In this document: positions 2,796 through 37,571 of the stretch, one piece after another | Layout: the number at the start of each line of letters is the position of its first letter | Numbering within the stretch: position 1 is the first letter of the stretch | Virus record (IMG/VR): IMGVR_UViG_2541047735_000003 | Location: 1-40,965 of that record | DNA: 40,965 nucleotides | Reading direction: 5' to 3' (one strand) | DNA from: a virus | Taxonomy: Duplodnaviria; Heunggongvirae; Uroviricota; Caudoviricetes | Position numbers and translations under genes: made by a program | Notes under the pieces: model-generated | The model's input: the letters and a program-made list of their open reading frames with translations, nothing else | Databases searched by the model: none | What the model was told of the DNA's origin: nothing

Positions 2796-3818
2796 TTACT
2801 CGAATTCTGGACGCATATCGTTAAGCGTCATCATGAATTTTTGGTGATATTCATCACCGAGCTTTTCAGCCATGGTGTTAATTTCATTTTCAGCGCGCTT
2901 GAACATCGTTTTTGCATCTTCAGCAGATGGATCCAGGCTATTAAGTATCGCGATGATATATTCTCGAGCTTCTTCTCGTTCTGAATCTGAAATTGGCGAC
3001 AGGTGTTGACGCTCATCGTCAACTACGGAATATTCACCAGTGATAACAGCTGCGTTATCTTGGCTAAGTCCAGCTTCAGCGCGCTCATCCATAACAACAG
3101 CCTTCTGCATTTCAATAGAAACAGGAAGATATTTGAACAGTCGGCGAATTACTGTTTTTTTAGCCATCTCATCGAAGTGATCAACCCATGGGCCACTGCT
3201 ACCGGCTTTGCTCAGTGCACGAACTTTCTCAACGTCTGCCCGGCTCATAACTTCAAATTGGACTCCGCCATCTTTCAGTCGTGCAACGGCGTAAACGTGC
3301 GTTAATTCTCCGCGGTCACCTGTTTCGCAAGGTAAATGCTCGAGCGTTTCTTCCAGGCCGTATGAGTAGCTGAATTTGTCGTTTGTATGTACGGTACGAG
3401 CCGAGATACTCAGGATCTGCCCAGAGCGGCGGGCAAGGTCAATCATTCCGCGATAGCCGATAATAAGCTGTGCTTCTGTAGATACGGTTTCCCATCTTCC
3501 ATTTACTTTCTGGCGTTTGTCGAACGGTATCAGGTAAGCGTGTCCAAGAGCTCCGCCTGGTTCAAGACCCAATTGGGCACATTGCATAATTGCCCCCAGG
3601 AAGCTGGCTTGGTCGCATGATGCAAGTTTTGGAACCTTTCTGATCTCTGTGGTTGCTATGCGCGCCAGACGGTCTGCTGTCATGTGCTTTGGAAGTGCCA
3701 AAGCCATCTGAGCTTTAATTTTTGGGTCTGCCAGAAGTCCGGCCAGAGTTGTTGGTTTCTCATTATGATGTGCAACTTGGTTACCGGTAGCCGCTGCCTT
3801 AAGTGCATTGATAGACAT
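2796..3818 (-). CDS. recT: RecT-family single-strand annealing recombinase
   Basis: 340-aa protein with GALGHAYLIPF and surrounding RecT-like core; sits directly downstream of an exonuclease gene, as in Rac-type RecET modules. Confidence 0.8.
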   Translation of the reverse strand: MSINALKAAATGNQVAHHNEKPTTLAGLLADPKIKAQMALALPKHMTADRLARIATTEIRKVPKLASCDQASFLGAIMQCAQLGLEPGGALGHAYLIPFDKRQKVNGRWETVSTEAQLIIGYRGMIDLARRSGQILSISARTVHTNDKFSYSYGLEETLEHLPCETGDRGELTHVYAVARLKDGGVQFEVMSRADVEKVRALSKAGSSGPWVDHFDEMAKKTVIRRLFKYLPVSIEMQKAVVMDERAEAGLSQDNAAVITGEYSVVDDERQHLSPISDSEREEAREYIIAILNSLDPSAEDAKTMFKRAENEINTMAEKLGDEYHQKFMMTLNDMRPEFE

Positions 3819-3827
3819 TTTTTCTCC

Positions 3828-4727
3828 TTACTTCATTCTGAAGACGCGTTGTGTCGTTGTTGTTTTGAATTTTTCGAATAACTCAGGGTGTACTGACTGG
3901 AATAGCTTCTGGTCGAATCTGTTGCTGATCTGAGATTTCCATGTGCAGAGCGGCTTTCCGTCCAGGGTCAGGACTGAGTGCTCTTGCATGTACATCTTCA
4001 GCTTCTCTTCTGATATAGCTATTTCTTCTTCCAGTGATTTTCTGCGTGACTTCATGTCTCGTAGATCGTTGAATAGTGCGAGTGCCTTTCCGTCAGCCTC
4101 GATACTTGTCCCGGCATCTTTCTCAAACATCAGCGATACATCGCTTACGCTGGTAGCTTCCGGCGGGTTAAGATTTTTCACTCGGTCCCAGAAAGCGATT
4201 TCTTTTTCTAAGATCGCCTGGATAGTTTCTTCATCACGCTCAACCCGATAGATTCGGAAGTCGTCGCCACCGATAAGCACACCGAAAACGCATACCTGTT
4301 TGTTTGTAACCATCAACCCGTGCATGGCCTGGGCCGTGTAATGCACAGGAATTGCATCTGTCTGGATTTCTCCCCATTCTTTGGCTTTGAACGGACTAAC
4401 TGTTTTGATCTCAATGTTCTCGCCTGACGCTGCTTCTGCATCGATCTCAGCTGCAATAAAATCGTAATCACGGTGGATATAGCGGTTTCCGCGATGAACG
4501 ATTTCCATCCCTGTTTCCTCAGAAAGCAGGTCTATTACGTATGGCTCCATACGCTGGCCACGCGTGAAAACTTTCTGCTTGCTTGGGTCTACTGGTTTGA
4601 CACGTGGCTGGACCTTATCCAGATAAACCTCAAGCGGGGTGCGCCATGGGCTAATTCCAAGAATCCCTGCAACATCGCTTCCTCCGATGTATTTTGTTCT
4701 ATCCATGATTCCAGCGTTCCGCATCAT
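3828..4727 (-). CDS. YqaJ-like phage recombination exonuclease
   Basis: 299-aa protein; N-terminal RTKYIGGSDVAGILGISPWRTP is typical of the YqaJ viral recombinase exonuclease domain; true start may be the internal Met (MDRTKY, about 4706). Confidence 0.75.
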   Translation of the reverse strand: MMRNAGIMDRTKYIGGSDVAGILGISPWRTPLEVYLDKVQPRVKPVDPSKQKVFTRGQRMEPYVIDLLSEETGMEIVHRGNRYIHRDYDFIAAEIDAEAASGENIEIKTVSPFKAKEWGEIQTDAIPVHYTAQAMHGLMVTNKQVCVFGVLIGGDDFRIYRVERDEETIQAILEKEIAFWDRVKNLNPPEATSVSDVSLMFEKDAGTSIEADGKALALFNDLRDMKSRRKSLEEEIAISEEKLKMYMQEHSVLTLDGKPLCTWKSQISNRFDQKLFQSVHPELFEKFKTTTTQRVFRMK

Positions 4728-5331: not shown

Positions 5332-5916
5332 TTATTGTTTGTTTTTTTCGTTCTGGTTGATGACAAATTCAATGTAACTTTCGATCTTTGCTTTCTCGGT
5401 TTCGGGTAACAATGCGTAGCGCGAGCGGTCATAGTTGATGGTCGCAGGGTCGTGCGGGTGAATCAGTAATTCATAGCCGTGACGCCCGAATGCGGATGCA
5501 ACATTCTCCAGGGTGGAAATGGAAACGCTGACCTCATTGTTTAACAGGCGGCTGATTGTCACCTGGGCGACGCCGGATGCGCGGTGAAGTTTTCCCTGTG
5601 TTGAAAGGTCGCGGCTTTCGCTCATCCAGCGTTCCAGGTTGTGAGCCGCCAGCTGGCCAATGTCGCTTGGGCCGACAGGCTGAAAACCTTCCTGAGAAAG
5701 CGAGCGATCGATATCAAGCCAGTTACGGGGTTTATTGGCGGCAGCTTCAATTTTTCGCGCAACCTGGTCGCCGATAACCTTCTTGCCAAGAGCCCAGCGG
5801 TTTACCAGATTTGCCTGAGTTCCAAGTTTTTCTGCCATCCGCGTCTGAACACCATTGAATTCACGGTCGATCAAGTCGTTGAGATTTTGCCTGCGGACGT
5901 CCTGGATACTTTTCAT
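5332..5916 (-). CDS. CI-like prophage repressor with two HTH domains and no S24 peptidase domain
   Basis: 194-aa protein; N-terminal Cro/CI-type HTH (TRMAEKLGTQANLVNRWALGKK) and a second HTH-like segment (ASGVAQVTISRLLNNE); divergent from the cro-like gene across an operator-rich intergenic region; no Ala-Gly/Ser-Lys autocleavage module seen. Confidence 0.65.
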   Translation of the reverse strand: MKSIQDVRRQNLNDLIDREFNGVQTRMAEKLGTQANLVNRWALGKKVIGDQVARKIEAAANKPRNWLDIDRSLSQEGFQPVGPSDIGQLAAHNLERWMSESRDLSTQGKLHRASGVAQVTISRLLNNEVSVSISTLENVASAFGRHGYELLIHPHDPATINYDRSRYALLPETEKAKIESYIEFVINQNEKNKQ

Positions 5917-8293: not shown

Positions 8294-8340
8294 CAAAACA
8301 TTCTAAACTCTATTGATTTCGTGTCTTATGTGGTTTTTAA

Positions 8341-10538: not shown

Positions 10539-10555
10539 CTATTACCACGGTGGTT

Positions 10556-13688: not shown

Positions 13689-13703
13689 TTACCTGAAAGG
13701 TAA
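13689..13703. promoter_or_regulatory. Operator palindrome TTACCTGAAAGGTAA upstream of portal operon
   Basis: Perfect site about 90 bp upstream of ATG 13794; identical 15-mer to the site at 34333. Confidence 0.55.
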
Positions 13704-25602: not shown

Positions 25603-27300
25603 ATGCCAATTTACACAGATGATCCGGGACAGGGCATTAACCAGCCAATTGGCAACGCGCCAGCAGGGCTTGGCGAATCGCTGCTTTCTTCCCTTAAGCA
25701 GGGATTTGAAGAGGGGCCGGTCATGTCCGGCTACCGCTTTGCGCAGGTCGACTCGCTGGCGAATGACCCAAACTCTACAGTTATCAGTAAGCAGGACGCA
25801 GATGAGCTCCTGAAGCAGTACGGCGTAAAGAGCATAAACGTGCCAGATTCTGGCGTTACGCAGGCTTTTCTCGATCATGTTATTGCCGAACGCAAAGATT
25901 CTCTGGCACGCCAGCAGATTGCGATGTCGGCACCGAGCGGGTGGGTAGCCACGCCGCTTAATTTCGCAGCCAGCCTAGCTGGTTCAATGGCAGATCCTGG
26001 TAACGTGGCGCTGGCGCTGGTTCCGTTCGCTGGAGAAGCAAAGGCAGCTTCTGTGCTTGGCCGATTTGGCGAGCGATTTGTTGCGGGTGCACGCATGGGG
26101 GCAGCGCAGGCGGTGGTGACCGTGCCGCTTACCGGGCTGGCAGCGGCGGCGGAAGGTGACGACTTCACCTATAGCAACGCGTTGGAAAGTACTTTCTTTA
26201 ACACGATGGCTGGCGGTCTAATGCATGCCGGCGGCGGCCTTATCGCCGATATCGTGCGACCGCGTCGCGTTCCCGATGCTGCAACGGGAGAGTCCCCGGC
26301 GTTTTCTGGCGATGCGCAGCCAACCCCGGTGATAACGCCTGACAACATTCCGGCGGGCGTGAATATCCCTGAGGTTGGCGCTAACGCAGATCTGGCGGCG
26401 GCCATTTCCAATGAAGCGGAGAGCTACGCATACAGCCGGGCTTATGACGACGTGATTCCTGACTATATGGCGCGCCAGCAGGAGTTACAGAGCGGACAGA
26501 TCGGTAACGTTGCCGACCTGCGTGCCGAGCTTGCGGCTAATCAACGTCATGCTGACTCGCTTGATGCGACGCTGCAGCAGCGCACCAAAAAGTATCAGGG
26601 GCAGCGGATGAAGTTTAAGGATGCGCGCTCTAGGGCACTGAAAGAGATTCAGGCCGAGAAAGACGCCATCGCTGCACGCAATCAGGAGATCAACACATCG
26701 CTGGAGCAGAACGCGACAGCAGAGCAGGCGCGCTGGCGCCAGTCTCAGATTTCCCGCGGCGAGATCCCCGACGACCTGAAAGTCACCATTTCCGAGCGTG
26801 CGCAGCAGATCCTGGACGGCATGCAGATGTCGCCGGTCGCTGGCGCAGTTCGCACTGCCGCAAGCGCCATCAGGGATGCTGACTGGAGCGTGAACCAGCA
26901 GGCGTATCGCGCTGCGCTGGCACACATGATGGAAGGACGTAGCCCAGATGTTGAGCCCTTCTATGAACTGCACAAATCGGCACTGCGTGAACGCGCCATC
27001 CATCGCATACAGAACCCGGCACGGCAGGTTGATGAAACGGCTCGCCCAGCAAGCGAAACAGCCGATCGGGTTTATCAAGAAACGCAAAAGGCAGATCATG
27101 AAATTACCGCTGCCGCTGCAGACCTTGATAACGAGCTCAACCTGAGTAACGCCCTGCTTGACGATATCGCTGTCGATAACCCTGATCTTGCGACCACGTT
27201 GCGCCAGAAACTCAATGATATTCGTGCCGACGCCAGCGACAATAGCATGAGCAACGCTTTCCGGGCATTTGCCGCCTGTATGATTAACCGGGGGATGTGA
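25603..27300 (+). CDS. Internal virion / ejection protein
   Basis: 565-aa protein in tandem with the other large ejection proteins. Confidence 0.5.
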   Translation: MPIYTDDPGQGINQPIGNAPAGLGESLLSSLKQGFEEGPVMSGYRFAQVDSLANDPNSTVISKQDADELLKQYGVKSINVPDSGVTQAFLDHVIAERKDSLARQQIAMSAPSGWVATPLNFAASLAGSMADPGNVALALVPFAGEAKAASVLGRFGERFVAGARMGAAQAVVTVPLTGLAAAAEGDDFTYSNALESTFFNTMAGGLMHAGGGLIADIVRPRRVPDAATGESPAFSGDAQPTPVITPDNIPAGVNIPEVGANADLAAAISNEAESYAYSRAYDDVIPDYMARQQELQSGQIGNVADLRAELAANQRHADSLDATLQQRTKKYQGQRMKFKDARSRALKEIQAEKDAIAARNQEINTSLEQNATAEQARWRQSQISRGEIPDDLKVTISERAQQILDGMQMSPVAGAVRTAASAIRDADWSVNQQAYRAALAHMMEGRSPDVEPFYELHKSALRERAIHRIQNPARQVDETARPASETADRVYQETQKADHEITAAAADLDNELNLSNALLDDIAVDNPDLATTLRQKLNDIRADASDNSMSNAFRAFAACMINRGM

Positions 27301-29849
27301 TGGCAGCAAACGAATTTTTGACGCAGTGCGAGCGCAGTGTAAATGCTGCCGCTGGTCGCGAGCTTTCTTCCGATGAGATGGAGTCGCTGGTGCGTGACAT
27401 GAACGACACCACTAGGCGAATTCTGGCGACCAATGAGGCGCTGTCTCTGGAAGAGGCCGCGATGCGCGCAGCGGAAGAACTGAGCAATGCCGATATGCTG
27501 GCAAAACAGATTGAGTCTCGCAATAAGGCAATCAACACCCGTATTGCCGCACAACGACTTAGAGAGCTTCGTACTATCTGGAAAGACCGCCCGGATATCG
27601 GGCTTGAAGCAATGCTGGTTGGCCGTAACGATGCGCGTACCGGCGCCCGCCGGTCGGTATCTTCGGAGGTGGCGCAACTGCGCGGCAAGTATCATTCCGG
27701 TATCAACTACGATTTTGACCGTGCCGGGCTGGTGCAATTCATCGCCAGCGGCAGCAATGACAGGGAAATTGCCGATGCAATGTGGCGCATAGGGCGCGGG
27801 CAGTCAACTGACGGTATGACAAAGCAATCCGTAAGCGCTGCACAAATCATCATGAAATGGCAGGAAACTGCGCGCATTGATGAGAACCGCGCCGGGGCAT
27901 GGATACGCAAAGAGCCGGGCTATATAGTGCGCCAGTCACACGACATCATGAAGATCCGCGCCGCAGGTTATGAAGCATGGCGAAATGCTATTCTCCCGCG
28001 CCTTGATGAGCGCACTTTTGACGGCGTGGCTGACCGCGAGCAGTTCATGCGTAACATTTATAACGGGCTGGCTTCCGGCGTGCATCTTACATCTGAAAAG
28101 CCCGATTGGATGAATGGCTTTAAGGGATCGGCGAACGCAGCTAAACGCGCCAGCCAAGAGCGAATTTTGCACTTCAAAGATGGTATCTCGTGGCACGAGT
28201 ACAACCAGCAATTCGGCACCGGCAGCCTGCGAGAGGCGCTGTTTGGTGGCTTAAACAGCGCTGCCCGCACAACGGGCATGATGCGCGTACTGGGCACTAA
28301 CCCACAGAACATGTTTAAGTACCTGACGGACACCATTGCTGAAGATATCAGCAAATCCGGAAGACCGGCAGCGTTGGCTGACTACATGACGAAGGTGCGT
28401 CGCATTAACCGTACCGTAATGCCGCAGGTTGACGGCTCGCTAAATATTCCTGGCAGCGTAGGCTGGGCCAATGCGTCGGCGGCTGTACGCGGCTGGTTGC
28501 GTATGAGCCAGCTTGGTGGCGCGGTAATCTCATCGTTTAACGACGTGCCTATCGCCGCTACCGAGATGCGCTACCAAGGGCAGAATTTTATGCAGGCGTT
28601 GCTTGGTGCTATGAGAGGCCGCTTCACGCGTTACAACAGCGCGGAGCAGAAAGAGATCCTTTCCTCTATCGGAGTTTATTCCGACTCCATGACGCAGGAA
28701 ATCATCCGGCGCATATCTGGTGATGACACGCTGAATGGAAAACTTGGTCGCGCGCAGCAGCTTTTCTTTAAGTACAACCTCATGAACTTCTGGACCGAGA
28801 GCGGTCGCAACAGTAACGCCATGATGATAACCAACTGGCTTGCAAAGAATGCTGACCAGCCTCATGCGCGGCTACCGGAAGACCTGCGACGCGTGCTGGA
28901 TCTGCACGGTATTGGCGAACGTGAGTGGGAAATTTTTCGCAACATGGACATGGCCGATAGCGAAGGTCGTAAGTTCATGACGACCAGCGGCATCCGCGGC
29001 GTGCCTGACGAAGTGATTGCCGGTTATGTAGAGAGTAAGGGGATCAAGCCAACGCAGCGCGCTATCGCTGACGCACGCGATCAATTGGAAGGGCAGTTGC
29101 GCGGCTACATCCTTGACCGCCTGAATATCGCCATGTCAGAGCCTGGCGATCGCACGCAGGCGTTTATGAAGATGGGCACGGTGCCAGGAACGGTGGCTGG
29201 GGAAGCAATACGATTCGCTGGTCAGTACAAATCGTTCACTGCAAGCTTCATGCAGAACGTACTAGGACGCGAAGTATTCGGGCGTGGTTATATTCCTGCT
29301 GGGCTTGGTGAGTCGAAAACCGGATCGCTGACGAATGCGCTGCTGCGTAACGGGAAGGGGGCTTTCCTTGGTGCTGCAAACCTCTTTGTCTGGGCGACTA
29401 TGTTTGGTTATATCTCCATGCAGTCAAAACTCATGCTGAAAGGGCAAACACCGCGCCCGGCAGATGCCAAGACGTTTCTCGCAGCCGCATCTCAGGGGGG
29501 CGGTCTTGGCATCTTGGGTGACTTCATGTTTGGCGAGGTCAACCGCATGGGGGCCGGGCCGGTTACGTCGCTAATGGGGCCGGCAGCATCGAACGCTGAC
29601 AGCATTATCACGCTGCTCCAGCAGACCACGAGAGGGGATGCAGATTTGGGTGACTGGTATCGCACGGCACTTGACAATACGCCATTCCTCAACGTGTTCT
29701 GGCTTCGTACGGCGATGAATGGTTTAATATTGAACCGGATACAAGATGCCCTTGACCCTGGCTCTCTTGAGCGTTATCAGCGCCGTGTTGAGCGTGAGCA
29801 GGGTAACGAATTTCTGATTCCACCATCGCAGTTCATGCTAGGGAAGTAA
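27297..29849 (+). CDS. Internal virion / ejection protein (large)
   Basis: 850-aa protein, last of three large tandem proteins typical of podovirus ejectosomes. Confidence 0.5.
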   Translation: MMAANEFLTQCERSVNAAAGRELSSDEMESLVRDMNDTTRRILATNEALSLEEAAMRAAEELSNADMLAKQIESRNKAINTRIAAQRLRELRTIWKDRPDIGLEAMLVGRNDARTGARRSVSSEVAQLRGKYHSGINYDFDRAGLVQFIASGSNDREIADAMWRIGRGQSTDGMTKQSVSAAQIIMKWQETARIDENRAGAWIRKEPGYIVRQSHDIMKIRAAGYEAWRNAILPRLDERTFDGVADREQFMRNIYNGLASGVHLTSEKPDWMNGFKGSANAAKRASQERILHFKDGISWHEYNQQFGTGSLREALFGGLNSAARTTGMMRVLGTNPQNMFKYLTDTIAEDISKSGRPAALADYMTKVRRINRTVMPQVDGSLNIPGSVGWANASAAVRGWLRMSQLGGAVISSFNDVPIAATEMRYQGQNFMQALLGAMRGRFTRYNSAEQKEILSSIGVYSDSMTQEIIRRISGDDTLNGKLGRAQQLFFKYNLMNFWTESGRNSNAMMITNWLAKNADQPHARLPEDLRRVLDLHGIGEREWEIFRNMDMADSEGRKFMTTSGIRGVPDEVIAGYVESKGIKPTQRAIADARDQLEGQLRGYILDRLNIAMSEPGDRTQAFMKMGTVPGTVAGEAIRFAGQYKSFTASFMQNVLGREVFGRGYIPAGLGESKTGSLTNALLRNGKGAFLGAANLFVWATMFGYISMQSKLMLKGQTPRPADAKTFLAAASQGGGLGILGDFMFGEVNRMGAGPVTSLMGPAASNADSIITLLQQTTRGDADLGDWYRTALDNTPFLNVFWLRTAMNGLILNRIQDALDPGSLERYQRRVEREQGNEFLIPPSQFMLGK

Positions 29850-29850
29850 T

Positions 29851-30222
29851 ATGAACAGAATTATATTAATGATTATTCTTATGCTTTTAGTTGTAAAATC
29901 TTTTGCAGATACTACCTCACCGTTAATGATTCAGCCTAAAAATGGGGAAACACTGGAGGATTCTAAAAAGCATACAATGGAATATTTTGGATGTATAAAA
30001 GGGCAGGCCGTAAAATACGCTAAGACAGGAGAAAGTGTTGATTCTATATCCAAAGCTTCGGTTGTGTCATGCGAGTCGTACATACAAAAGATTGCTGAAT
30101 CAAATATATACTATTTAAATTCCTCTCAAGACGGTAAGCGGAAATTTATTGGAAGGCTTAAATCAGATGGTGAAAGTTTAGCAACGAAATTTGCTATGGA
30201 TGAAAAGCTAAAAAATAAATAG
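29851..30222 (+). CDS. Secreted small protein (AT-rich moron)
   Basis: 123-aa ORF with N-terminal signal-peptide-like MNRIILMIILMLLVVKSFA; visibly AT-rich codon usage compared with flanking structural genes. Confidence 0.55.
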   Translation: MNRIILMIILMLLVVKSFADTTSPLMIQPKNGETLEDSKKHTMEYFGCIKGQAVKYAKTGESVDSISKASVVSCESYIQKIAESNIYYLNSSQDGKRKFIGRLKSDGESLATKFAMDEKLKNK

Positions 30223-30372
30223 GTGACTACATGCAAGCGATAGGATTCATTGGGCTGATGGTTTGCAGCTAACCTGCAAGTTTGCGAAGTGCCAAACAAA
30301 TAATCTCACGGCGCTGTTCATCCCCAGGAAGCTGCATTGTGATTTTCACAATGCAGGTTTTAAACCACTGCT

Positions 30373-30579
30373 TCATTTTCGTAAAGCCATACAAATCATG
30401 GCTTGCACCCCACCGGCAGAAGGTATGGTGATTTCCACCATACCCTTCGAGAAGCGTTGAGAAATCTTCTTATGTTGAGATTTCCAGTCTAGACCCATTC
30501 CCTCAACGATAGGTTTCATTGGGGTGTACGGTTCGCCGTTGTGATTGACAACATAAAGTTCTACGCCGTGGAATGGCAC
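30373..30579 (-). pseudogene. Truncated antirepressor N-terminal fragment
   Basis: 68-aa ORF whose sequence (NGEPYTPMKPIVEGMGLDWKSQHKKI) resembles the N-terminal domain of P22-type antirepressors but ends after about 68 residues, far shorter than full-length antirepressors. Confidence 0.4.
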
Positions 30580-30726
30580 GTTGATAGTAGTGACAAGTTT
30601 GAAACATCGCTGGTTGTAAGCCAGCAGATGCTCGTTATTTTACATCGCGGTACAATTTCTCGCTGGTGGCTCTTTTACACACCTTAACCAAATACGGTTG
30701 ATTTTAATGTTTTTTCGCGCTTATCA

Positions 30727-30741
30727 TTACCTTTTCGGTAA
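30727..30741. promoter_or_regulatory. Operator palindrome TTACCTTTTCGGTAA at head of antirepressor leader 1
   Basis: Perfect site followed by TTTACA, a hairpin and an intrinsic terminator. Confidence 0.55.
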
Positions 30742-30831
30742 ATTTACATCGCGCTCATCTTGTGCCATAGTAATCGGGCACTGGCAAAATCCAGTGCCGG
30801 GATTGGCGTCCCGGGTTACTAAGTGGCGCAT

Positions 30832-30854
30832 ACCACGCCAGACGTGGTTTTTTT
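30832..30854 (+). terminator. Intrinsic terminator inside antirepressor leader 1
   Basis: ACCACG-CCAGA-CGTGGT followed by seven T; about 155 bp upstream of the antirepressor start codon. Confidence 0.6.
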
Positions 30855-31010
30855 ATGCGTTAAGCACAGCTATATCCGAATTATGGTGGGCTGGGCAGGG
30901 GTCCGAAAGGACGCCGGTACCACTTAGGCCGGTACGCCAACCTTGTCCAGTTCACCACCAGTAATTGGCGTTGCGGTGGTGATTAAAATCACTAAGTGGA
31001 GATAACCACC

Positions 31011-31721
31011 ATGGCTAATGCTCAAACTGCCATCTTCAAATTTGAATCTGTTAACCCTATCCGTTCCATCATTATCGATGGCCAACCATGGTTTGTAGCC
31101 CAAGACGTTTGTAGTGCGCTGCGTATCCAAAACGTCACCCAAGCACTTGAAAAACTGGATGATGATGAAAGGTCTATGTTCAACATAGGGCATGAACATC
31201 GTGCAATTTTTGACAGCCGAGTAAAAGAGATCAACATCATCTCCGAGTCAGGCCTCTACACACTGATCCTCCGCTGCCGCGACGCAGTGACACCAGGCAC
31301 TATCCCCTACCGCTTTCGTAAATGGGTTACAGGTGAGGTTCTTCCTCAGATCCGCCGCACCGGAAGTTACATTAAAAACTCGCTCCCGCAGGAAGAACGC
31401 ATAAAGATAGTTGCCGACCAGGTAGCCAACGCCACAGCATCAGCAGTGATGCAGGCAATGAAGATAGAGAACAAAACCTACAGTGCCCCGCTGAAGCCCG
31501 GCTACCGCAGCCTGATTCATTCTCCGTCTGGTGTTCTCGGCCTGACGGAGAACTCACTGCTGATGAATCTGCTGAACCAGTTACAGGACGACGGGCACGA
31601 CGTATCGGGCGCGGCGGCGGAGCTGACCACCATGTTCTGCTACATCGTCGGTGTGAGTAAATGCCTGCGTGATATCCAGACCCACGCGGAATACATCAAC
31701 GACAAGGCAGGGTTCTTCTGA
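31011..31721 (+). CDS. Bro-N domain antirepressor-like protein (copy 1)
   Basis: N-terminal Bro-N-like motif (DGQPWFVAQDVCSALRI); C-terminal about 135 aa nearly identical to the convergent paralog 32993..33730; ATG 31011 (ORF-track frame starts 30996). Confidence 0.65.
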   Translation: MANAQTAIFKFESVNPIRSIIIDGQPWFVAQDVCSALRIQNVTQALEKLDDDERSMFNIGHEHRAIFDSRVKEINIISESGLYTLILRCRDAVTPGTIPYRFRKWVTGEVLPQIRRTGSYIKNSLPQEERIKIVADQVANATASAVMQAMKIENKTYSAPLKPGYRSLIHSPSGVLGLTENSLLMNLLNQLQDDGHDVSGAAAELTTMFCYIVGVSKCLRDIQTHAEYINDKAGFF

Positions 31722-31752
31722 CGGGCGGTGGCACAGGGATGTGCCTTTAAAT
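31308..31752 (+). repeat. Inverted repeat: 3' half of antirepressor copy 1
   Basis: About 445 bp nearly identical in inverse orientation to 32962..33406, extending about 30 bp past the stop codon. Confidence 0.65.
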
Positions 31753-31793
31753 AATTCTGTACAGATTGCAGACCGGGGGTGAATAGCGTACTA

Positions 31794-31808
31794 TTACCTT
31801 AAAGGTAA
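31794..31808. promoter_or_regulatory. Operator palindrome TTACCTTAAAGGTAA upstream of cargo operon
   Basis: Perfect site 43 bp upstream of ATG 31851. Confidence 0.55.
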
Positions 31809-31850
31809 ACCTGTTTTTATTTTATACCTGTAACTTACCGGAGATTAAAG

Positions 31851-32177
31851 ATGACAAAACTTGGATTCGTGATGAGAGGTCCGGTAAGAAGCGGAACTCA
31901 TGCAAAGCGTAGCAAGAGTCGTATTTTTACTGGTAAGGTTGTAGCACGTAAATCAGCTATTGGCTCGTTCAATAGTGAAAATGCGGCATTGCGCCATATT
32001 TTTATCAGCACAAAGCCAAGAGCATCCGCTGATGTGCATACAATGTCTATTCCTATCACAAAGAATATAAAGCGGATAAAAAAGCTCTCATCTGCAGAAT
32101 CAAAAGAGATATCTTTCCGCCAGCTTAACTCATTAGAAACGCATATGAAGGAAGAGGAATTCGATGTTTTTGAGTGA
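31851..32177 (+). CDS. Hypothetical basic protein, first gene of AT-rich cargo operon
   Basis: 108 aa, Lys/Arg-rich; GGAG upstream; overlaps the downstream gene by 14 nt; no recognisable family. Confidence 0.5.
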   Translation: MTKLGFVMRGPVRSGTHAKRSKSRIFTGKVVARKSAIGSFNSENAALRHIFISTKPRASADVHTMSIPITKNIKRIKKLSSAESKEISFRQLNSLETHMKEEEFDVFE

Positions 32178-32676
32178 GTATAGCGGGAAGGTTATACCTA
32201 CTGGTGAGTTTAAAACTGATGACTTTCTGATTTCGCTAAAAGATGCTTTTAAACAACACTGGCGTCATGGTCATCATCCTGATCTGGGAAAAGATACTCT
32301 TTTTGAAAGACCAGAGGAAGTATTAGGCTTCCATCTCAGAAAGGTTCATGTCAATATTGGTGAATATGCATCATATTCATACTCATGTACTGAACAGTGT
32401 TGGGATGAGTGGTCATATGGATTGATTGATGAACAAGGAAATTACAGGCCAAAACCAACCAGTAACGCATATCTCATATATGCAGTCAATGAAATAAGAG
32501 ATGCAGCCTTACTAGCTTATTGGGACCCGCCCGCACACACCAAAGCTAACGCAAAAGTTTGGATGGATTCCGTATTGAATTTCACAAAATTATTTCATGA
32601 ACGAACGAATACAGCTCCACTTAGTAGAAATGTTTATCCGTGGGATTATTCGTACAAATCCAAAAAGCCTGCATAG
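32164..32676 (+). CDS. YafO-like toxin candidate
   Basis: 170 aa; segments FHLRKVHVNIGE and TSNAYLIYAV...AALLAYWDPPAHTKA resemble the YafO pattern as recalled from memory; AT-rich. Confidence 0.4.
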   Translation: MFLSEYSGKVIPTGEFKTDDFLISLKDAFKQHWRHGHHPDLGKDTLFERPEEVLGFHLRKVHVNIGEYASYSYSCTEQCWDEWSYGLIDEQGNYRPKPTSNAYLIYAVNEIRDAALLAYWDPPAHTKANAKVWMDSVLNFTKLFHERTNTAPLSRNVYPWDYSYKSKKPA

Positions 32677-32757
32677 TAGTTTTTTATGGACGAAACAAAA
32701 GTCAGTGCTACACTCATTGACGCCACATTGAGGTGGTTTATAGATGGAAATTTCACA

Positions 32758-32919
32758 ATGAAAAAAGCATTTGCTGCACTGTTCGTTTTGTTGTCTCTGG
32801 TAGCTTCAACTCAGGCCTTTGCCGGTCGTTGTCAGCACGACAGCGACACTGCTGCTGACGGCTCCCGCTGCGGTGGGCGTTCTGCGGATTCCCGCCCGGG
32901 TGGCGGTGGCATTCGTTAA
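32758..32919 (+). CDS. Small secreted peptide
   Basis: Internal ATG of ORF 32686..32919 gives MKKAFAALFVLLSLVASTQAFA signal peptide followed by a short Gly/Arg/Cys-containing mature region. Confidence 0.45.
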   Translation: MKKAFAALFVLLSLVASTQAFAGRCQHDSDTAADGSRCGGRSADSRPGGGGIR

Positions 32920-32924
32920 AAACA

Positions 32925-32942
32925 AGGCCGCGAAAGCGGCCT
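32925..32942. terminator. Stem-loop between cargo operon and antirepressor copy 2
   Basis: AGGCCGC-GAAA-GCGGCCT; T-rich on the minus strand, so it likely terminates antirepressor copy 2. Confidence 0.45.
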
Positions 32943-32955
32943 GTGACATGTCACG
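32942..32955. repeat. 14-bp palindrome TGTGACATGTCACG (copy 3)
   Basis: Identical 14-mer between the cargo operon and the 3' end of antirepressor copy 2, immediately after hairpin 32925-32942. Confidence 0.6.
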
Positions 32956-32961
32956 CTAGTT

Positions 32962-33406
32962 TCGTTTTGCACGTCCCTGTGCCGCCGTTCTGTCAGAAGA
33001 ACCCTGCCTTGTCGTTGATGTATTCCGCGTGGGTCTGGATATCACGCAGGCATTTGCTCACACCGACGATGTAGCAGAACATGGTGGTCAGCTCCGCCGC
33101 CGCGCCCGATACATCGTGCCCGTCTTCCTGTAACTGGTTCAGCAGATTCATCAGCAGTGAGTTCTCCGTCAGGCCGAGAACACCAGACGGAGAATGAATC
33201 AGGCTGCGGTAGCCGGGCTTCAGCGGGGCACTGTAGGTTTTGTTCTCTATCTTCATCGCCTGCATTACTGCTGACGCCGTGGCGTTGGCTACCTGGTCGG
33301 CAACCATCTTTATGCGTTCTTCCTGCGGGAGCGAGTTTTTAATGTAACTTCCGGTGCGGCGGATCTGAGGAAGAACCTCACCTGTAACCCATTCAAGAAA
33401 TCTGAA
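32962..33406 (-). repeat. Inverted repeat: 3' half of antirepressor copy 2
   Basis: Partner of 31308..31752; antisense spurious ORFs 31372..31557 and 33157..33342 are about 90 percent identical, showing the nucleotide identity. Confidence 0.65.
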
Positions 33407-33730
33407 TGCTCTCGTTCCCTCAGTCATTGCCTCTTTGCAACGCAGAATAAGGATGTAGAGACCTGATTCTGAAACGATGGATAGTTCTTGTATTCCACCA
33501 GGGGTCTGTATTGAATACAGCCCCTTTTTGTTCCAGCCTTTTTTATCAAGTTTTCTCGCTTGTGTAACATCAATATTCAAAGCATTGCACACATCTTTGG
33601 TGACAAACCAAGGTTCTCCGTCAATCATGAACATACGGATCTGGCAGGATGACTCAAAGGAAAAGATGGAAGGTTTGGTATTCATGGCGATCACCTTTGT
33701 AGTTAGGTTAATCACCACCGCTGAGACCAA
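32993..33730 (-). CDS. Bro-N domain antirepressor-like protein (copy 2)
   Basis: N-terminal Bro-N-like motif (DGEPWFVTKDVCNALNI) divergent from copy 1; C-terminal half nearly identical to copy 1; true start probably the internal ATG (MNTKPSIF). Confidence 0.65.
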   Translation of the reverse strand: MVSAVVINLTTKVIAMNTKPSIFSFESSCQIRMFMIDGEPWFVTKDVCNALNIDVTQARKLDKKGWNKKGLYSIQTPGGIQELSIVSESGLYILILRCKEAMTEGTRAFRFLEWVTGEVLPQIRRTGSYIKNSLPQEERIKMVADQVANATASAVMQAMKIENKTYSAPLKPGYRSLIHSPSGVLGLTENSLLMNLLNQLQEDGHDVSGAAAELTTMFCYIVGVSKCLRDIQTHAEYINDKAGFF

Positions 33731-33967
33731 TCAGATGGTGGTGAACTGTGCAGAGTTGGTCTTACCGGCTACAAAGGAACCCGGCGCACCTTTCGGTGCC
33801 CCCACACAGCCCACCATAGAATAGGTGCGCTTTACACATAAAAAAACCGCTTATGCGGCATATGTGCCTCTGTAGTAATCCGGGAGACCAATCCCGGCAC
33901 TGGATTTTGCCAGTGCCCGATTACTATGGCACAAGAGGAGTGCGATGTAAATTTACCGAAAAGGTAA
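33731..33967 (-). repeat. Antirepressor leader, inverted-repeat copy A'
   Basis: Reverse complement aligns with 30715..30995, including the operator, the hairpin and a T-run terminator with a shorter CCGC-ATAA-GCGG stem. Confidence 0.6.
33953..33967. promoter_or_regulatory. Operator palindrome TTACCGAAAAGGTAA at head of antirepressor leader 2
   Basis: Perfect site; mirror-image counterpart of the site at 30727. Confidence 0.55.
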
Positions 33968-33998
33968 ATATAAGCACTCCACTTGGTAATTGCAAACC

Positions 33999-34256
33999 TT
34001 ATCTGGTTTGTTTTCGTAATTGTTCGGCACAATAGTCGAGATGTGTTTGCAGATCCTGCATAGACATCTGTGAGCTGGTGACGTAGTTAATCAGTGCAGT
34101 CAGTTCGGCAAGTGGGCCATCGACATTAAATCCATCCTTATCGAGATCCCGGAGTAATTTCATCAAGTGCGATCCCTCCACCAGTGACCTGACGCCTCCC
34201 GGCGTGTGAATCCTTTCGGTAAATCCGTCTTCCAGTGGATAGTGATACTGCTGCAT
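33999..34256 (-). CDS. Small stand-alone antirepressor C-domain homolog, LexA-box associated
   Basis: 85 aa from ATG 34256; IHTPGGVRSLVEGSHLMKLLRDLDKDGFNVDGPLAELT...DLQTH aligns with the C-terminal domain of both Bro-N proteins; a CTGT-N8-ACAG box lies about 22 bp upstream; ORF-track frame extends to 34379. Confidence 0.55.
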   Translation of the reverse strand: MQQYHYPLEDGFTERIHTPGGVRSLVEGSHLMKLLRDLDKDGFNVDGPLAELTALINYVTSSQMSMQDLQTHLDYCAEQLRKQTR

Positions 34257-34277
34257 CTTATCTTCTCCATGCAATAA

Positions 34278-34293
34278 CTGTATATTTATACAG
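34278..34293. promoter_or_regulatory. LexA (SOS) box CTGTATATTTATACAG
   Basis: Matches the CTGT-N8-ACAG consensus with an AT-rich spacer; 22 bp upstream of ATG 34256 on the minus strand. Confidence 0.6.
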
Positions 34294-34332
34294 TAGCAAA
34301 TAATTTGTTTGCTATCCAGCACGTTTTGCAAA

Positions 34333-34347
34333 TTACCTGAAAGGTAA
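34333..34347. promoter_or_regulatory. Operator palindrome TTACCTGAAAGGTAA between small antirepressor gene and tailspike
   Basis: Perfect site in the divergent intergenic region. Confidence 0.55.
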
Positions 34348-34451
34348 TATCTATTCGTATTTACAGTCTTTCTATCCATATGTGGTTTTCCAGGTAATAG
34401 AATAACCAGATATGCGGCGCAACGGGTGCTGCGACTATCTGGAGATTTAAC

Positions 34452-37400
34452 ATGACGGTCTCAACCGAAGTTGACCACAACGAATACACCGGTAACGGCG
34501 TTACGACATCGTTTCCGTATACTTTTCGAATTTTCAGAAAATCAGACCTGGTTGTTCAGGTGTCTGACCTGAACGGGAACGTAACAGAATTGGTTCTGGA
34601 TACCGGTTATACGGTAACTGGGGCGGGCACTTATAGTGGCGGTGCAGTGGTTCTTCCGTCGCCGCTTGCTGCTGGCTGGCGAATCACGATAGAGCGTGTG
34701 CTTGATGTGGTGCAGGAGACAGACCTTCGCAATCAGGGAAAATTTTTCCCCGAAGTGCATGAAGATGCCTTTGACTACCTGACGATGCTGATCCAGCAAT
34801 GTTTTGGGTGGTTCAGACGTGCATTGATGAAACCATCTTTGCTTGCAAAATATTACGATGCAAAGCAAAACAAAATTTCTAACCTTGCAGATCCATCATT
34901 TGAGCAGGACGCTGTAAATAATCGCTCAATGCGTAATTATGTCGATGCTGCAATCGCCGGGGTTGTTGGTGGTTTTGGTTGGTTTATTCAGTATGGTTCT
35001 GGGGCTGTGTACCGAACGTTCCAGGATAAAATGCGTGATGCTATTAGCCCCAAAGATTTTGGAGCTGTTGGTGATGGTATAAATGACGATTCCACTGCAA
35101 TAAGCGCGTGCCTTGAAGCCTCATCTCCAGGTTATAAAATTGACGGATTAGGGCTTACTTTTAAAGTATCAACTCTTCCGGATGTCAGTCGATTTAAAAA
35201 TGCTCGTTTTTTATTTGAGAGAATACCGGGCCAGCCTCTTTTTTATGCTTCTGAAGATTTTATCCAGGGAGAGTTATTTAAAATTACAGATACACCGTGG
35301 TACAACGCCTGGACGCAGGATAAAACGTTTGTATATGACAATGTCATCTATGCGCCTTTTATGGCTGGAGACCGCCATGGTGTAAATAACCTCCATGTTG
35401 CATGGGTTCGCTCAGGAGATGACGGGAAGACCTGGACAACGCCGGAATGGCTTACAGATTTACATGAAAACTATCCCACAGTTAACTATCACTGCATGAG
35501 TATGGGGGTTGTCAGAAATCGCCTTTTTGCTGTAATTGAGACGCGGACCGTGAGCGGAAATAAACTGCAGGTTGCAGAGTTGTGGGATCGCCCAATGAGT
35601 CGCAGCCTTCGCGTTTATGGTGGTATAACGAAAGCAGCAAATCAGCAAGTCGCTTATATTCGCATTACTGATCACGGATTATTTGCTGGTGATTTTGTCA
35701 ACTTCTCAAACTCTGGTGTTACAGGTGTTACCGGGAATATGACGGTGACTACTGTTATTGATAAAAATACTTTTACAGTTACGACGCAAAATACCCAGGA
35801 TGTGGATCAGAATAACGAGGGTAGATACTGGAGTTTTGGTACATCATTTCACTCGTCACCATGGAGAAAAACCAGTCTTGGAACTATTCCTTCTTTTGTT
35901 GACGGAAGCACTCCTGTTACTGAGATTCACAGTTTTGCGACGATTAGCGATAACAGTTTTGCTGTTGGCTACCATAATGGTGATATTGGTCCACGCGAGC
36001 TTGGGATACTCTATTTCTCTGATGCTTTCGGTTCTCCTGGTAGCTTTGTTCGCAGACGCATACCTGCAGAATATGAGGCGAATGCATCTGAGCCATGTGT
36101 AAAATATTATGATGGCATTCTGTATCTGACGACCAGGGGGACATTAAGTACTCAACCCGGTAGTTCATTGCACAGAAGCTCTGATTTAGGTACATCATGG
36201 AATTCTCTTCGCTTCCCAAATAATGTTCATCACTCAAACCTTCCTTTTGCCAAAGTTGGCGATGAGCTGATTATTTTTGGCAGTGAGCGCGCATTTGGTG
36301 AGTGGGAAGGAGGAGAACCTGATAACCGTTATGCAGGAAATTATCCAAGAACATTTATGACCAGAGTTAACGTCAATGAGTGGAGTCTGGATAATGTAGA
36401 GTGGGTTAATGTTACTGATCAGATTTATCAGGGCGGAATAGTTAACTCTGCGGTTGGTGTTGGTTCAGTTTGTATCAAAGACAACTGGCTGTACTACATT
36501 TTCGGTGGGGAAGACTTTCTAAACCCATGGAGCATAGGGGATAACAACAGAAAATATCCTTATTTTCACGATGGTCACCCGGCTGATTTGTATTGTTTCA
36601 GGGTGAAAATTAAACAGGAAGAATTTGTTTCAAGGGATTTTGTCTACGGAGCCACTCCTAACAGAACGCTTCCTACTTTTATGTCGACGTCAGGCGTGAG
36701 GACGGTTCCTGTACCCGTTGATTTCACAGATGATGTTGCCGTCCAGTCACTGACTGTCCATGCAGGTACATCAGGACAAGTTCGCGCGGAAGTCAAACTT
36801 GAGGGTAATTACGCCATTATTGCGAAGAAAGTACCGTCTGATGATGTTACCGCTCAGAGATTAATCGTTAGCGGCGGTGAAACAACGTCTTCAGCAGATG
36901 GTGCAATGATAACGTTGCATGGTTCCGGAAGCAGTACTCCACGTCGCGCGGTATATAACGCACTCGAACATCTTTTTGAGAACGGAGATGTTAAACCTTA
37001 TCTTGATAATGTAAATGCTCTTGGTGGTCCGGGAAACAGGTTCTCGACAGTTTATCTTGGCTCCAATCCTGTGGTTACCAGTGACGGAACATTAAAGACA
37101 GAGCCGGTCTCTCCTGACGAAGCATTGCTGGATGCCTGGGGTGACGTCAGGTATATCGCTTATAAATGGCTGAACGCTGTCGCTATAAAGGGGGAAGAAG
37201 GGGCGAGGATACATCATGGTGTAATCGCGCAGCAACTTCGTGATGTTCTTATTTCTCACGGACTCATGGAAGAAGAAAGCACAACATGCCGCTATGCCTT
37301 TCTTTGCTATGACGATTATCCCGCAGTATATGATGACGTCATTACTGGCCAAAGGGAAATGCCGCTGACTGATAATGACGGGAGCATCATTGTTGATGAG

Positions 37401-37571
37401 GATGATAATCCAGTGATGGTAATAGAAGACATCATTGAGCGCGTTGAAATAACGCCAGCAGGATCTAGATGGGGGGTCAGACCTGATCTCTTATTCTATA
37501 TCGAGGCAGCATGGCAGCGCAGAGAAATGGATAAGATAAAAGAGCGGGTTCAGTCTCTGGAAGAACGTTAA
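34452..37571 (+). CDS. Tailspike / receptor-binding protein with sialidase-like domain and C-terminal chaperone
   Basis: 1039 aa; two Asp-box motifs (SGDDGKTW, SSDLGTSW); C-terminal SDGTLKTEPV...HHGVIAQQLRDVL resembles the autoproteolytic S74 chaperone domain of endosialidase-type tail proteins. Confidence 0.8.
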   Translation: MTVSTEVDHNEYTGNGVTTSFPYTFRIFRKSDLVVQVSDLNGNVTELVLDTGYTVTGAGTYSGGAVVLPSPLAAGWRITIERVLDVVQETDLRNQGKFFPEVHEDAFDYLTMLIQQCFGWFRRALMKPSLLAKYYDAKQNKISNLADPSFEQDAVNNRSMRNYVDAAIAGVVGGFGWFIQYGSGAVYRTFQDKMRDAISPKDFGAVGDGINDDSTAISACLEASSPGYKIDGLGLTFKVSTLPDVSRFKNARFLFERIPGQPLFYASEDFIQGELFKITDTPWYNAWTQDKTFVYDNVIYAPFMAGDRHGVNNLHVAWVRSGDDGKTWTTPEWLTDLHENYPTVNYHCMSMGVVRNRLFAVIETRTVSGNKLQVAELWDRPMSRSLRVYGGITKAANQQVAYIRITDHGLFAGDFVNFSNSGVTGVTGNMTVTTVIDKNTFTVTTQNTQDVDQNNEGRYWSFGTSFHSSPWRKTSLGTIPSFVDGSTPVTEIHSFATISDNSFAVGYHNGDIGPRELGILYFSDAFGSPGSFVRRRIPAEYEANASEPCVKYYDGILYLTTRGTLSTQPGSSLHRSSDLGTSWNSLRFPNNVHHSNLPFAKVGDELIIFGSERAFGEWEGGEPDNRYAGNYPRTFMTRVNVNEWSLDNVEWVNVTDQIYQGGIVNSAVGVGSVCIKDNWLYYIFGGEDFLNPWSIGDNNRKYPYFHDGHPADLYCFRVKIKQEEFVSRDFVYGATPNRTLPTFMSTSGVRTVPVPVDFTDDVAVQSLTVHAGTSGQVRAEVKLEGNYAIIAKKVPSDDVTAQRLIVSGGETTSSADGAMITLHGSGSSTPRRAVYNALEHLFENGDVKPYLDNVNALGGPGNRFSTVYLGSNPVVTSDGTLKTEPVSPDEALLDAWGDVRYIAYKWLNAVAIKGEEGARIHHGVIAQQLRDVLISHGLMEEESTTCRYAFLCYDDYPAVYDDVITGQREMPLTDNDGSIIVDEDDNPVMVIEDIIERVEITPAGSRWGVRPDLLFYIEAAWQRREMDKIKERVQSLEER

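Follow-up and report, generated by a model that had tools for sequence, protein, structure and literature searches.

What kind of system is formed when two antirepressor genes of a temperate phage face each other as near mirror images, and how did such a pair arise? The question is raised by positions 30719-33967 of IMG/VR virus record IMGVR_UViG_2541047735_000003, which we analyzed over its whole length of 40,965 nucleotides (nt; the window). The locus holds two convergent modules, A and B, each with a leader and an antirepressor gene (antA and antB), and a segment of three small "cargo" genes between them. We consider it likely that it is a pair of convergent immI-type antirepressor operons, of the kind known as P1 c4-ant and Gifsy-1 isrK-anrP, in a phage that uses SPC32H Rep/Ant immunity. 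The features are collected in Table 1.

The open reading frames (ORFs) 30996..31721 (plus strand) and 32993..33730 (minus strand) are convergent, and their likely start codons are the ATGs at 31011 (antA) and 33685 (antB). Both products belong to the Bro-N family PF02498, with 71.3 bits (E 1e-19) for AntA and 51.2 bits (E 2e-13) for AntB against a cut-off of 25.6 bits, and their N-terminal parts share 46% amino acid identity. Two inverted repeat pairs were located with a repeat finder: the inner pair I1 (31219-31722 / 32992-33495; 504 nt, 91%) and the outer pair I2 (30719-30821 / 33873-33975; 103 nt, 93% complementary). Pairwise alignment resolves a near-identical core of I1, the inner arm, which extends up to the stop codon (31322-31722 versus the reverse complement of 32992-33392; 393/401 identical), and about 430 nt align between the antA and antB 3' ends when the short hairpin after the stop is counted. 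Identity between the modules is mosaic: ~95% over the outer ~100 nt, 70-80% over the remaining leader, where homology up to the start codons is weaker, and ~55-60% over the first 310 nt of coding sequence, before an abrupt jump (~58% to 98%) at 31322. Between them, the arms enclose 1269 nt (31723-32991). A sequence-only reading of the window had described convergent Bro-N paralogs with differing N-terminal domains, homologous outer leaders and about 445 bp of near-identical inverted 3' sequence; this description agrees with our results, its repeat length is close to the measured one, and inverted identity is present within 30700-34000 in the form of the two repeat pairs.

Inverted repeats of 100-400 nt can confuse short-read assemblers, which could leave the segment between them mis-oriented or chimeric. 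Such an artefact is scarcely credible here, as Escherichia coli N21 is 100% identical to the window over 27000-31744 and MS196-1 98.9% identical over 31722-37000, and independent complete genomes thus show the outer junctions as well as the inner structure again. Each flank junction was also recovered in the complete E. coli set (F_L-A in N21 at 100% identity; small-ant-B, beside the small stand-alone ant gene, in 82 genomes), so the locus structure is neither an assembly artefact nor a chance match.

We scanned the whole window against Rfam, using the gathering scores of 50 for the Hfq-binding small RNA isrK (RF01394) and 45 for the antisense RNA C4 (RF01695). Each leader contains one isrK and one C4; all four RNAs exceed the gathering scores, both C4 matches are full-length on the covariance model (1-87), and in both leaders isrK carries a 3' intrinsic terminator in addition to its model score, as expected for a family member. 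A sigma-70-like promoter (TTTACA-17-CATAGT, with TG) found in a promoter scan ends 6 nt ahead of each isrK 5' end. The homology of the leaders noted by the sequence-only reading is therefore real, but what it took for plain leaders are known regulatory RNAs, isrK and C4, behind an operator-like palindrome and a promoter. The orf45 equivalents, counted from the conserved AUG, comprise 14 codons (A) and 28 codons (B) and stop 84 and 46 nt before the ant ATG, respectively. The gap between C4 and the ant ATG is only 48 nt (A: 30963-31010; B: 33733-33686), and this 48-nt gap holds no ORF, icd or other, in either module.

The pairing sites within the leaders are module-specific. Contiguous complementarity between C4 and its target amounts to 8 (site b) and 7 (site a) nt in module A, and to 9 (b) and 7 (a) nt in module B, whereas non-cognate combinations reach at most 5 contiguous nt. 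The calculated duplex energy of C4-A is -22.9 kcal/mol on the A target and -11.9 kcal/mol on the B target; that of C4-B is -20.9 kcal/mol on the B target and -8.9 kcal/mol on the A target. The energies of C4 against IsrK are similar to those against the ant targets, and in an all-against-all matrix the cognate pair is best in every row. IsrK repeats the targets of the ant leader: a1 = a2, and b1 = b2 except for one G-U-compatible change in b1 of module B. Both sites differ between the modules, with matching changes in C4, target and IsrK; since both pairing positions carry such compensatory differences, each module would be gated by its own RNA pair, and the two look like orthogonal, independently gated channels.

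The same two-site code is found beyond the window. We assembled a leader set from 79 IMG/VR loci encoding the C-terminal domain of AntA/AntB and 8 annotated GenBank/RefSeq loci (6 E. coli chromosomal and 2 phage), in which nhmmer located 104 leaders, 38 of them unique. Pairing was scored by per-sequence extraction of the sites and duplex energies, because a MAFFT alignment shifted a2, b' and b2 of type A by 1-2 columns. Site a occurs in three states (ACGCC/GGCGU, AGACC/GGUCU and GUGCAAA/UUUGCAC) and site b in four (CCACUUAG, CCUUUGUAG, CCUUUUAG and CCUACUAG, each with its complement). The C4 and target states are matched in every leader, in eight a/b combinations, and the IsrK state is likewise matched, save in one evident recombinant. 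This covariation provides a ready-made collection of orthogonal RNA regulator/target pairs. The recombinant is the leader L013:2477-2709, in which isrK a1 is GGCGU and C4/target are AGACC/GGUCU; in this natural isrK-C4 recombinant, decoy and antisense RNA should mismatch. On the single contig represented by L013 and L025 (IMGVR_UViG_3300045988_096329), three isrK-C4 leaders, two of them back-to-back and divergent, carry three different a/b codes.

From these features we propose the following circuit. Each operon would open with a cassette of operator-like palindrome, sigma-70 promoter and isrK. Most transcripts would end at the isrK terminator to give IsrK, and those that read through would yield C4 followed by the ant mRNA. 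C4 is predicted to pair with the ant leader at two places, a' (joining region) with a2 and b' (hairpin loop) with b2; since b2 covers the Shine-Dalgarno sequence, C4 bound there would occlude it and block ant translation. IsrK, whose a1 and b1 are copies of the targets, would act as a decoy that titrates C4 and thereby releases translation.

The homologies of the two proteins indicate what the antirepressors act on. The C-terminal ~77 residues of AntA and AntB match residues 3-79 of PDB 5D50_E (86 amino acids (aa); E 2e-13 and 9e-14, respectively), and both C-domains match phrog_450 (E 6.5e-36 and 3.2e-37). The Ant protein of SPC32H is described as tetrameric; it binds two dimers of Rep and takes apart the tetramer with which Rep binds DNA (PMC9638917; see also PMC9986798). 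The window encodes a Rep homologue and a small stand-alone Ant, which is 42% identical to the AntA C-domain. Because it is homologous to SPC32H Ant, which alone binds Rep, the constant C-domain and not the variable Bro-N half is the likely repressor binder; and because this domain is homologous to a whole small Ant that disassembles Rep tetramers, AntA and AntB most likely attack one and the same class of Rep repressor. The suggestion of the sequence-only reading that differences between the Bro-N domains retarget the antirepressors to different repressors thus has its logic reversed, the shared C-domain being the SPC32H Ant homologue (5D50_E). This assignment identifies which half of the common "Bro-N antirepressor" class is likely to touch the repressor.

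The palindrome TTACC-N5-GGTAA occurs in 13 copies in the window (11 perfect; 0.69 expected), located at 5198-5274, 5972-6034, 8279-8355, 10524-10556, 13689-13703, 30727, 31794, 33953 and 34333. Pairs of copies occupy the two promoter regions of the rep gene (5198/5260 and 5972/6020), and single copies lie directly upstream of both isrK -35 elements and at the small ant promoter (34333), that is, at all three ant promoters. TTACC-N5-GGTAA is, judging from these positions, probably the Rep operator. CTGT-N8-ACAG boxes are found in the window only at 13159 and 34278; the small ant thus has a LexA box, and antA and antB have none. A terminator scan revealed no terminator-like site between the small ant (33999-34256) and P_isrK-B. 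For lack of such a site downstream of the LexA-controlled small ant, SOS transcription of this gene should enter the neighboring isrK and raise the IsrK level of that module, and which Bro-N-Ant fusion is coupled to SOS would then depend on the module adjoining the small ant: B in the window, and A in the related prophage of PF9285.

The proposed circuit can be compared with three known systems. In Gifsy-1, IsrK provided in trans raises anrP translation ~140-fold, and compensatory mutants (G28A/C162U and G31A/C159U) are available (PMC4825925). The pairs G28:C162 and G31:C159, verified there by experiment, correspond to the a1:a' helix of the window, offset by 1 nt. As in the window, an isrK with its own terminator heads the antirepressor operon, read-through gives a long mRNA, the middle hairpin of IsrK pairs ~130 nt downstream, and a processed orf45' species of ~80 nt (STnc1160) maps to the position of C4. 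Unlike in Gifsy-1, the orf45 equivalents (14/28 codons) do not overlap the ant start, the window has two mirrored modules with different pairing sequences, and the C-domain is of SPC32H-Ant type.

Full repression of P1 ant requires C4 (PMC8198154). The window resembles P1/P7 immI in that C4 (RF01695) and its target would come from one transcript, that there are two site pairs, one of which covers the ribosome-binding site, and that the promoter would be under the primary repressor. The immI region of P1 reportedly has an a1/b1 - c4 - a2/b2 layout, as described by Citron and Schuster in 1990; copies of the C4 target sites lie upstream of c4 in P1, and the heteroimmunity of P1 and P7 results from differences in C4 specificity. 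In contrast to P1, where icd is the direct target of C4, the window has no icd gene, so that C4 would block the ant ribosome site directly. Further differences are that AntA and AntB are unrelated to P1 Ant1/2, that the mimic sites lie in a separately terminated isrK, and that the module is present twice.

Antirepression by Rep-Ant in SPC32H was reportedly worked out by Kim and Ryu in 2013 and by Kim et al. in 2016 (PDB 5D4Z/5D50). The window is like SPC32H in encoding a Rep homologue and an 85-aa Ant behind a LexA box, and the C-domain of AntA/AntB spans nearly the whole 86-aa Ant; it differs in that this domain is fused behind Bro-N and is under isrK/C4 control instead of a LexA box. The three literatures of P1 C4, Salmonella IsrK and SPC32H Rep-Ant, which have been treated separately, are joined here into one testable circuit. 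Shuffling of BRO/KilA-N domains in phage regulators is said to have been described by Iyer, Koonin and Aravind in 2002, and likewise Bro-N, ORF6N/KilA-N-like, AntA and P22_AR_N N-termini are swapped here on a constant C-terminal module; what sets the present case apart is that the constant module is tied to a solved repressor-binding protein and that the joints are visible at the nucleotide level within one phage population.

Every component thus belongs to a described family: C4, isrK, Bro-N, SPC32H Ant/Rep and LexA-controlled ant. Literature searches aimed at the combination returned no paper on (i) an SPC32H-type Ant fused to Bro-N or other N-domains under isrK/C4, (ii) a two-site code common to IsrK, C4 and target, or (iii) a mirrored double module with non-identical codes or its orientation polymorphism; the fusion under isrK/C4, the code, the mirrored pair and the polymorphism all seem to be previously undescribed.

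For the second part of the question, how the pair arose, we surveyed 5,426 complete E. coli genomes (junctions counted at >=80% coverage). The F_L-A junction occurs in 1 genome and F_L-B in 6, and small-ant-A and small-ant-B occur in 96 and 82. Because 96 genomes carry A and 82 carry B beside the small ant, A and B are alternative alleles at this side, and phages with a single module are the majority. Nucleotide identity of the arm is 95-100% in all modules examined, without grouping by N-domain or genome. The arm is found behind at least seven N-termini from four domain families, namely at least four Bro-N variants and one type each of P22_AR_N, AntA-like and ORF6N, with a range of architectures in the 79-locus IMG/VR survey. 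Domain shuffling, as the sequence-only reading had supposed, is accordingly confirmed at the population level, with one C-terminal block on at least four Bro-N and three other N-terminus types.

The whole unit also occurs in both orientations. In PF9285, A_5 and IMG/VR locus L030, the 30719-33967 unit is 98.4-99.1% identical to the window and inverted relative to its flanks, where the virion gene and a P22-Ant remnant lie at one end and the genes for the small Ant and the tailspike at the other; the left flank of PF9285 is 98.2% identical to that of the window. In the leader alignment, flank-specific variants upstream of the -10 stay with the flank and the 3' part of isrK shifts as one block with C4 and ant, which places the exchange point in an identical ~50-nt stretch covering the promoter -10 and the isrK 5' end. 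A different arrangement, in which the leaders stay with the flanks and C4 is split from its target, had been considered from a megablast match of PF9285 (27000-30986, minus strand) and was refuted by this alignment. Recombinant arm junctions were found in N21, where antA and the arm are followed by the TM gene (cargo gene 3 in the window) in opposite orientation, and in L041 and L044, where antB and the arm are followed by the cargo in the same orientation. A synthetic junction of antA, arm and reverse-complemented cargo end was used as the query for inversion of the cargo alone, and the full junction was present in 0/5,426 complete E. coli genomes; N21, which matched the query over 1-1316 only and whose interior differs, the TM gene there facing antA, was rejected as such a case. 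The cargo inversion that the repeats would allow according to the sequence-only reading was therefore not found in these genomes; what does occur is the 3.2-kb unit in both orientations relative to its flanks, and recombinant arm junctions in N21 and L041/L044.

We read the promoter/isrK core (with its operator), the Ant-domain arm and the TM gene/terminator as mosaic recombination joints. Because two conserved blocks lie inverted, the unit and its contents could be re-oriented and re-assorted among relatives; the mirrored arrangement thus illustrates how short conserved regulatory and coding blocks serve as joints for immunity modules. The window equals N21 (100%) up to 31744 and MS196-1 (98.9%) from 31722, and a crossover between phages inside the arm accounts for its origin as well as inversion does. 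As part of the explanation we favor, antA and antB are likely alternative alleles joined by mosaic recombination, not products of duplication in situ.

An in-situ inverted duplication, in which the N halves and RNA sites diverged and gene conversion kept the C halves identical, would explain why the arms of the window differ from each other at only 8/401 positions, and orthologous A arms elsewhere from that of the window at 12-17, as expected from conversion within a genome. We nevertheless hold it to be very improbable: the 96 and 82 genomes above have A or B alone at one and the same site, at least seven different N-termini of four domain families share one arm, clustering of arm variants by genome is not seen either (B of the window has 2 differences from B of A_5), and the abrupt ~58% to 98% step at 31322 is typical of a mosaic joint rather than of a divergence gradient. 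Private gene conversion as the cause of the arm identity was rejected, the arms being 95-100% identical in all modules everywhere. The orientation polymorphism itself invites comparison with the G segment of Mu and the C segment of P1 (Gin/Cin), invertible segments beside tail-fibre genes; the unit here is bounded by inverted repeats, adjoins the tailspike gene and has been seen in both orientations among different genomes. A programmed invertible switch of this kind (Mu G, P1 C or Salmonella Hin) would invert the cargo or the whole unit within a clonal population and so change the antirepressor or cargo that is expressed. The 98.4-99.1% identical units lying opposite relative to the same flanks in PF9285, A_5 and L030, the confinement of the exchange to the ~50-nt promoter -10/isrK stretch, and the position next to the tailspike gene, as in classical invertible segments, fit such a switch, as does the fact that the module placed immediately behind the LexA-controlled small ant, with no terminator-like site in between, is set by the orientation. 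Unlike Mu G and P1 C, however, the window has no invertase (tblastn with Hin gave no match, best E 8.8); its early-region ORFs include a tyrosine integrase as the only site-specific recombinase, RecT and YqaJ, and no resolvase-type enzyme. The repeats are a promoter/small RNA cassette and a coding domain, and the genes concern immunity, not tail-fibre tips. The own promoter of each module lies inside the inverted segment, so flipping leaves promoter-gene coupling intact; the F_L-A and F_L-B counts (1 versus 6 of 5,426) suggest that orientations are fixed per lineage, both orientations having been seen among different genomes; cargo-only inversion was absent from the 5,426 genomes; and the arm crossover between N21-like and MS196-1-like phages explains the window equally. 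A programmed switch is therefore not supported, and we regard it as quite improbable.

The target of the fusions can also be read differently. They might be anti-immunity or cross-induction weapons against heterologous Rep-type repressors of competing prophages rather than parts of the phage's own lysis-lysogeny switch, and Bro-N would then add a second activity, for example DNA binding or anti-defence. The C-domain shares just 42% identity with the resident small Ant, yet is 95-100% conserved across phages with other tailspikes and flanks; in phiV10, the homologue bears the annotation of a putative anti-immunity protein; and the cargo, with a YafO-like and a small secreted product, resembles accessory genes. 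On the other hand, the isrK promoters bear the palindrome of the resident rep, which suggests control by the resident Rep, and the Bro-N antirepressor (ORF4) of the related Uetakevirus vB_EcoP_ZX5 shifts the lysogeny of its own phage, lowering it ~1000-fold when overexpressed (PMC9782041). We find this alternative possible but doubtful; it is compatible with the proposed operon pair and differs in the target only.

Some observations weigh against our proposal of two immI-type operons acting on Rep. At 42% identity to the small Ant, the C-domain may have another Rep allele, such as that of a competing prophage, as its target. C4 processing, IsrK titration and Ant-Rep binding in this phage are inferred from homologues, and the operator role of the palindrome from its distribution. 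The orf45 equivalents stop well upstream of the ant ATG, so the orf45-anrP translational coupling of Gifsy-1, judged from the ORF positions, does not carry over. Co-resident leader pairs sharing both sites numbered 0/19 (17 loci with two or three leaders), which fits separate gating of the modules, but the figure comes from related genomes, is not an independent-sample statistic and is suggestive only.

A likely benefit of two operons with different codes would be double coverage in heteroimmunity contests of the P1 versus P7 kind. A prophage with two C4 specificities would silence the antirepressors of two classes of incoming relatives, and a double-module phage would, as an invader, have two chances to escape a resident C4. 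The a/b code is in this respect a candidate heteroimmunity determinant among widespread E. coli prophages, including the K1-endosialidase phages of extra-intestinal pathogenic strains. A far-reaching extension, which we consider unlikely when taken as a whole, is that the mirrored pair is a two-channel, RNA-barcoded anti-immunity device. The two-site code (at least 3 x 4 states, 8 combinations seen) would set the heteroimmunity classes of uetakeviruses, and selection would keep co-resident modules non-identical; core recombination (inversion or exchange, possibly driven by RecT/YqaJ) would pick the fusion downstream of the LexA-controlled small ant, and SOS read-through would overproduce its IsrK and unlock only that antirepressor. 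Read-through of the convergent arms could, in addition, produce a ~400-bp double-stranded RNA that couples both operons.

The cargo is best understood together with module A. The sequence-only reading had called it a cargo segment flanked by the two paralogs, but it is not an independent cassette: in many E. coli genomes 30719-32955 (leader A, antA and the three cargo genes) is colinear as a single block and the right module is missing. Because this stretch travels as one unit, the "cargo", as far as gene order tells, forms the distal 3' end of the left operon and has an additional operator-like palindrome; it is not delimited by the repeats. The cargo-operon gene order of the window recurs in TL-2011b, where it faces a P22-type arc-ant pair. 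Cargo gene 2 scores 20.1 bits (E 7e-4) against PF13957, under the 25-bit cut-off, and an identical protein is labelled YafO family toxin in RefSeq; neither NCBIfam nor PADLOC gave a hit for the cargo or Ant proteins. There is no obvious T-run terminator for the plus-strand operon after the TM gene, the T run of the hairpin at 32925-32942 being on the minus strand only. Read-through into the inverted arm would yield an RNA able to fold into a ~400-bp hairpin.

Table 1. Features of the antirepressor locus and of related genes in the window (positions are those of the window; a and b sites are given as DNA where positions are listed and as RNA otherwise).
Feature	Position	Strand	Remarks
Outer repeat, left	30719..30821	+	palindrome TTACCTTTTCGGTAA 30727-30741, P_isrK 30743-30771, 5' part of isrK-A
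isrK-A small RNA	30778..30854	+	RF01394, 67.7 bits; intrinsic terminator 30832-30848 and T run
isrK-A mimic sites	a1 TTGGCGT 30803-30809; b1 CTAAGTGG 30819-30826	+	pairing analysis
C4-A antisense RNA	30879..30962	+	RF01695, 66.0 bits
C4-A sites	b' loop CCACTTAG 30920-30927; a' joining ACGCCAA 30934-30940	+	pairing analysis
antA leader targets	30965..30999	+	a2 TTGGCGT 30965-30971; b2 CTAAGTGG 30992-30999, overlaps Shine-Dalgarno GGAG
RNA sites, module A			b' (C4 hairpin-2 loop) CCACUUAG; a' (C4 joining strand) ACGCCAA; a2 UUGGCGU; b2 CUAAGUGG
RNA sites, module A isrK			a1 (middle-hairpin loop) UUGGCGU; b1 (next single strand) CUAAGUGG
antA	31011..31721	+	Bro-N (aa 1-104), linker, SPC32H-Ant-like C-domain (aa 155-231)
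Inner arm, left	31322..31722	+	encodes last ~13 aa of Bro-N, linker and Ant domain
Palindrome	31794..31808		TTACCTTAAAGGTAA, upstream of cargo genes
Cargo gene 1, 108 aa	31851..32177	+	phrog_5933, no functional annotation; 14-nt overlap with next gene; candidate antitoxin-like partner
Cargo gene 2, 170 aa	32164..32676	+	weakly YafO-toxin-like
Cargo gene 3 (TM gene), 53 aa	32758..32919	+	signal-peptide/membrane-associated, phrog_14503; last gene of left operon
Intrinsic terminator after antB	32925..32942	-	hairpin and minus-strand T run
Inner arm, right	32992..33392	-	repeat finder and identity profile
antB	32993..33685	-	second Bro-N variant; Ant-like C-domain (aa 149-225) as in AntA
antB leader targets	33694..33730	-	a2 TTGGTCT 33730-33724; b2 CTACAAAGG 33702-33694, overlaps Shine-Dalgarno
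C4-B antisense RNA	33734..33821	-	5' end 33821; RF01695, 78.6 bits
C4-B sites	b' CCTTTGTAG 33777-33769; a' AGACCAA 33762-33756	-	pairing analysis
isrK-B small RNA	33840..33916	-	5' end 33916; RF01394, 74.7 bits; terminator 33859-33846 and T run
isrK-B mimic sites	a1 TTGGTCT 33891-33885; b1 CTACAGAGG 33875-33867	-	pairing analysis
RNA sites, module B			b' CCUUUGUAG; a' AGACCAA; a2 UUGGUCU; b2 CUACAAAGG
RNA sites, module B isrK			a1 UUGGUCU; b1 CUACAGAGG
Outer repeat, right	33873..33975	-	palindrome 33953-33967, promoter 33951-33923, 5' part of isrK-B
Small stand-alone Ant, 85 aa	33999..34256	-	SPC32H-Ant/phrog_450 type, E 9e-48
Small-ant control region	34278..34347	-	LexA box CTGTATAAATATACAG 34278-34293 (perfect); palindrome 34333-34347
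Truncated P22-type antirepressor N-terminus, 68 aa	30373..30579	-	PF10547, E 2.5e-20; left flank
Rep repressor, SPC32H-type	5332..5916	-	5D50_A, E 4e-42; palindrome pairs on its flanks
RecT; YqaJ exonuclease	2796..4727	-	RecT 2796-3818, YqaJ 3828-4727; recombination system that could act on the repeats

The flanks identify the window as an epsilon15/phiV10-like (Uetakevirus) temperate phage, with the virion protein, tailspike, integrase, RecT/YqaJ and replication genes of this group, and the locus occupies an accessory-gene hotspot between the virion gene and the tailspike gene. The tailspike (34452-37571, plus strand) has an N-terminus of epsilon15 type joined to an endosialidase body of the K1 capsule-degrading kind; annotated copies that are nearly identical exist in E. 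coli N21 (a cerebrospinal fluid isolate), MS8345 and MS196-1, which indicates a K1-specific Uetakevirus-like prophage lineage.

On the left flank, an intact 336-aa P22_AR_N protein with the shared C-terminal arm sits at the side of the P22-type remnant in 12 related loci. With respect to the virion genes, the remnant runs opposite to the arrangement in TL-2011b, a hint of an earlier rearrangement. The ORF at 29851-30222 (plus strand) lies between the gene for the 850-aa virion protein and the antirepressor locus and encodes a 123-aa protein with an N-terminal signal-like hydrophobic segment; this protein matched nothing in Pfam, NCBIfam or PHROG, and both N21 and PF9285 conserve it. Elsewhere in the window, an MT-A70 family methyltransferase (1446-2108, minus strand) belongs to the early leftward operon with RecT/YqaJ, and a tRNA-Arg (anticodon UCU; 13290-13366, minus strand) lies near the second CTGT-N8-ACAG box, at 13159-13174.

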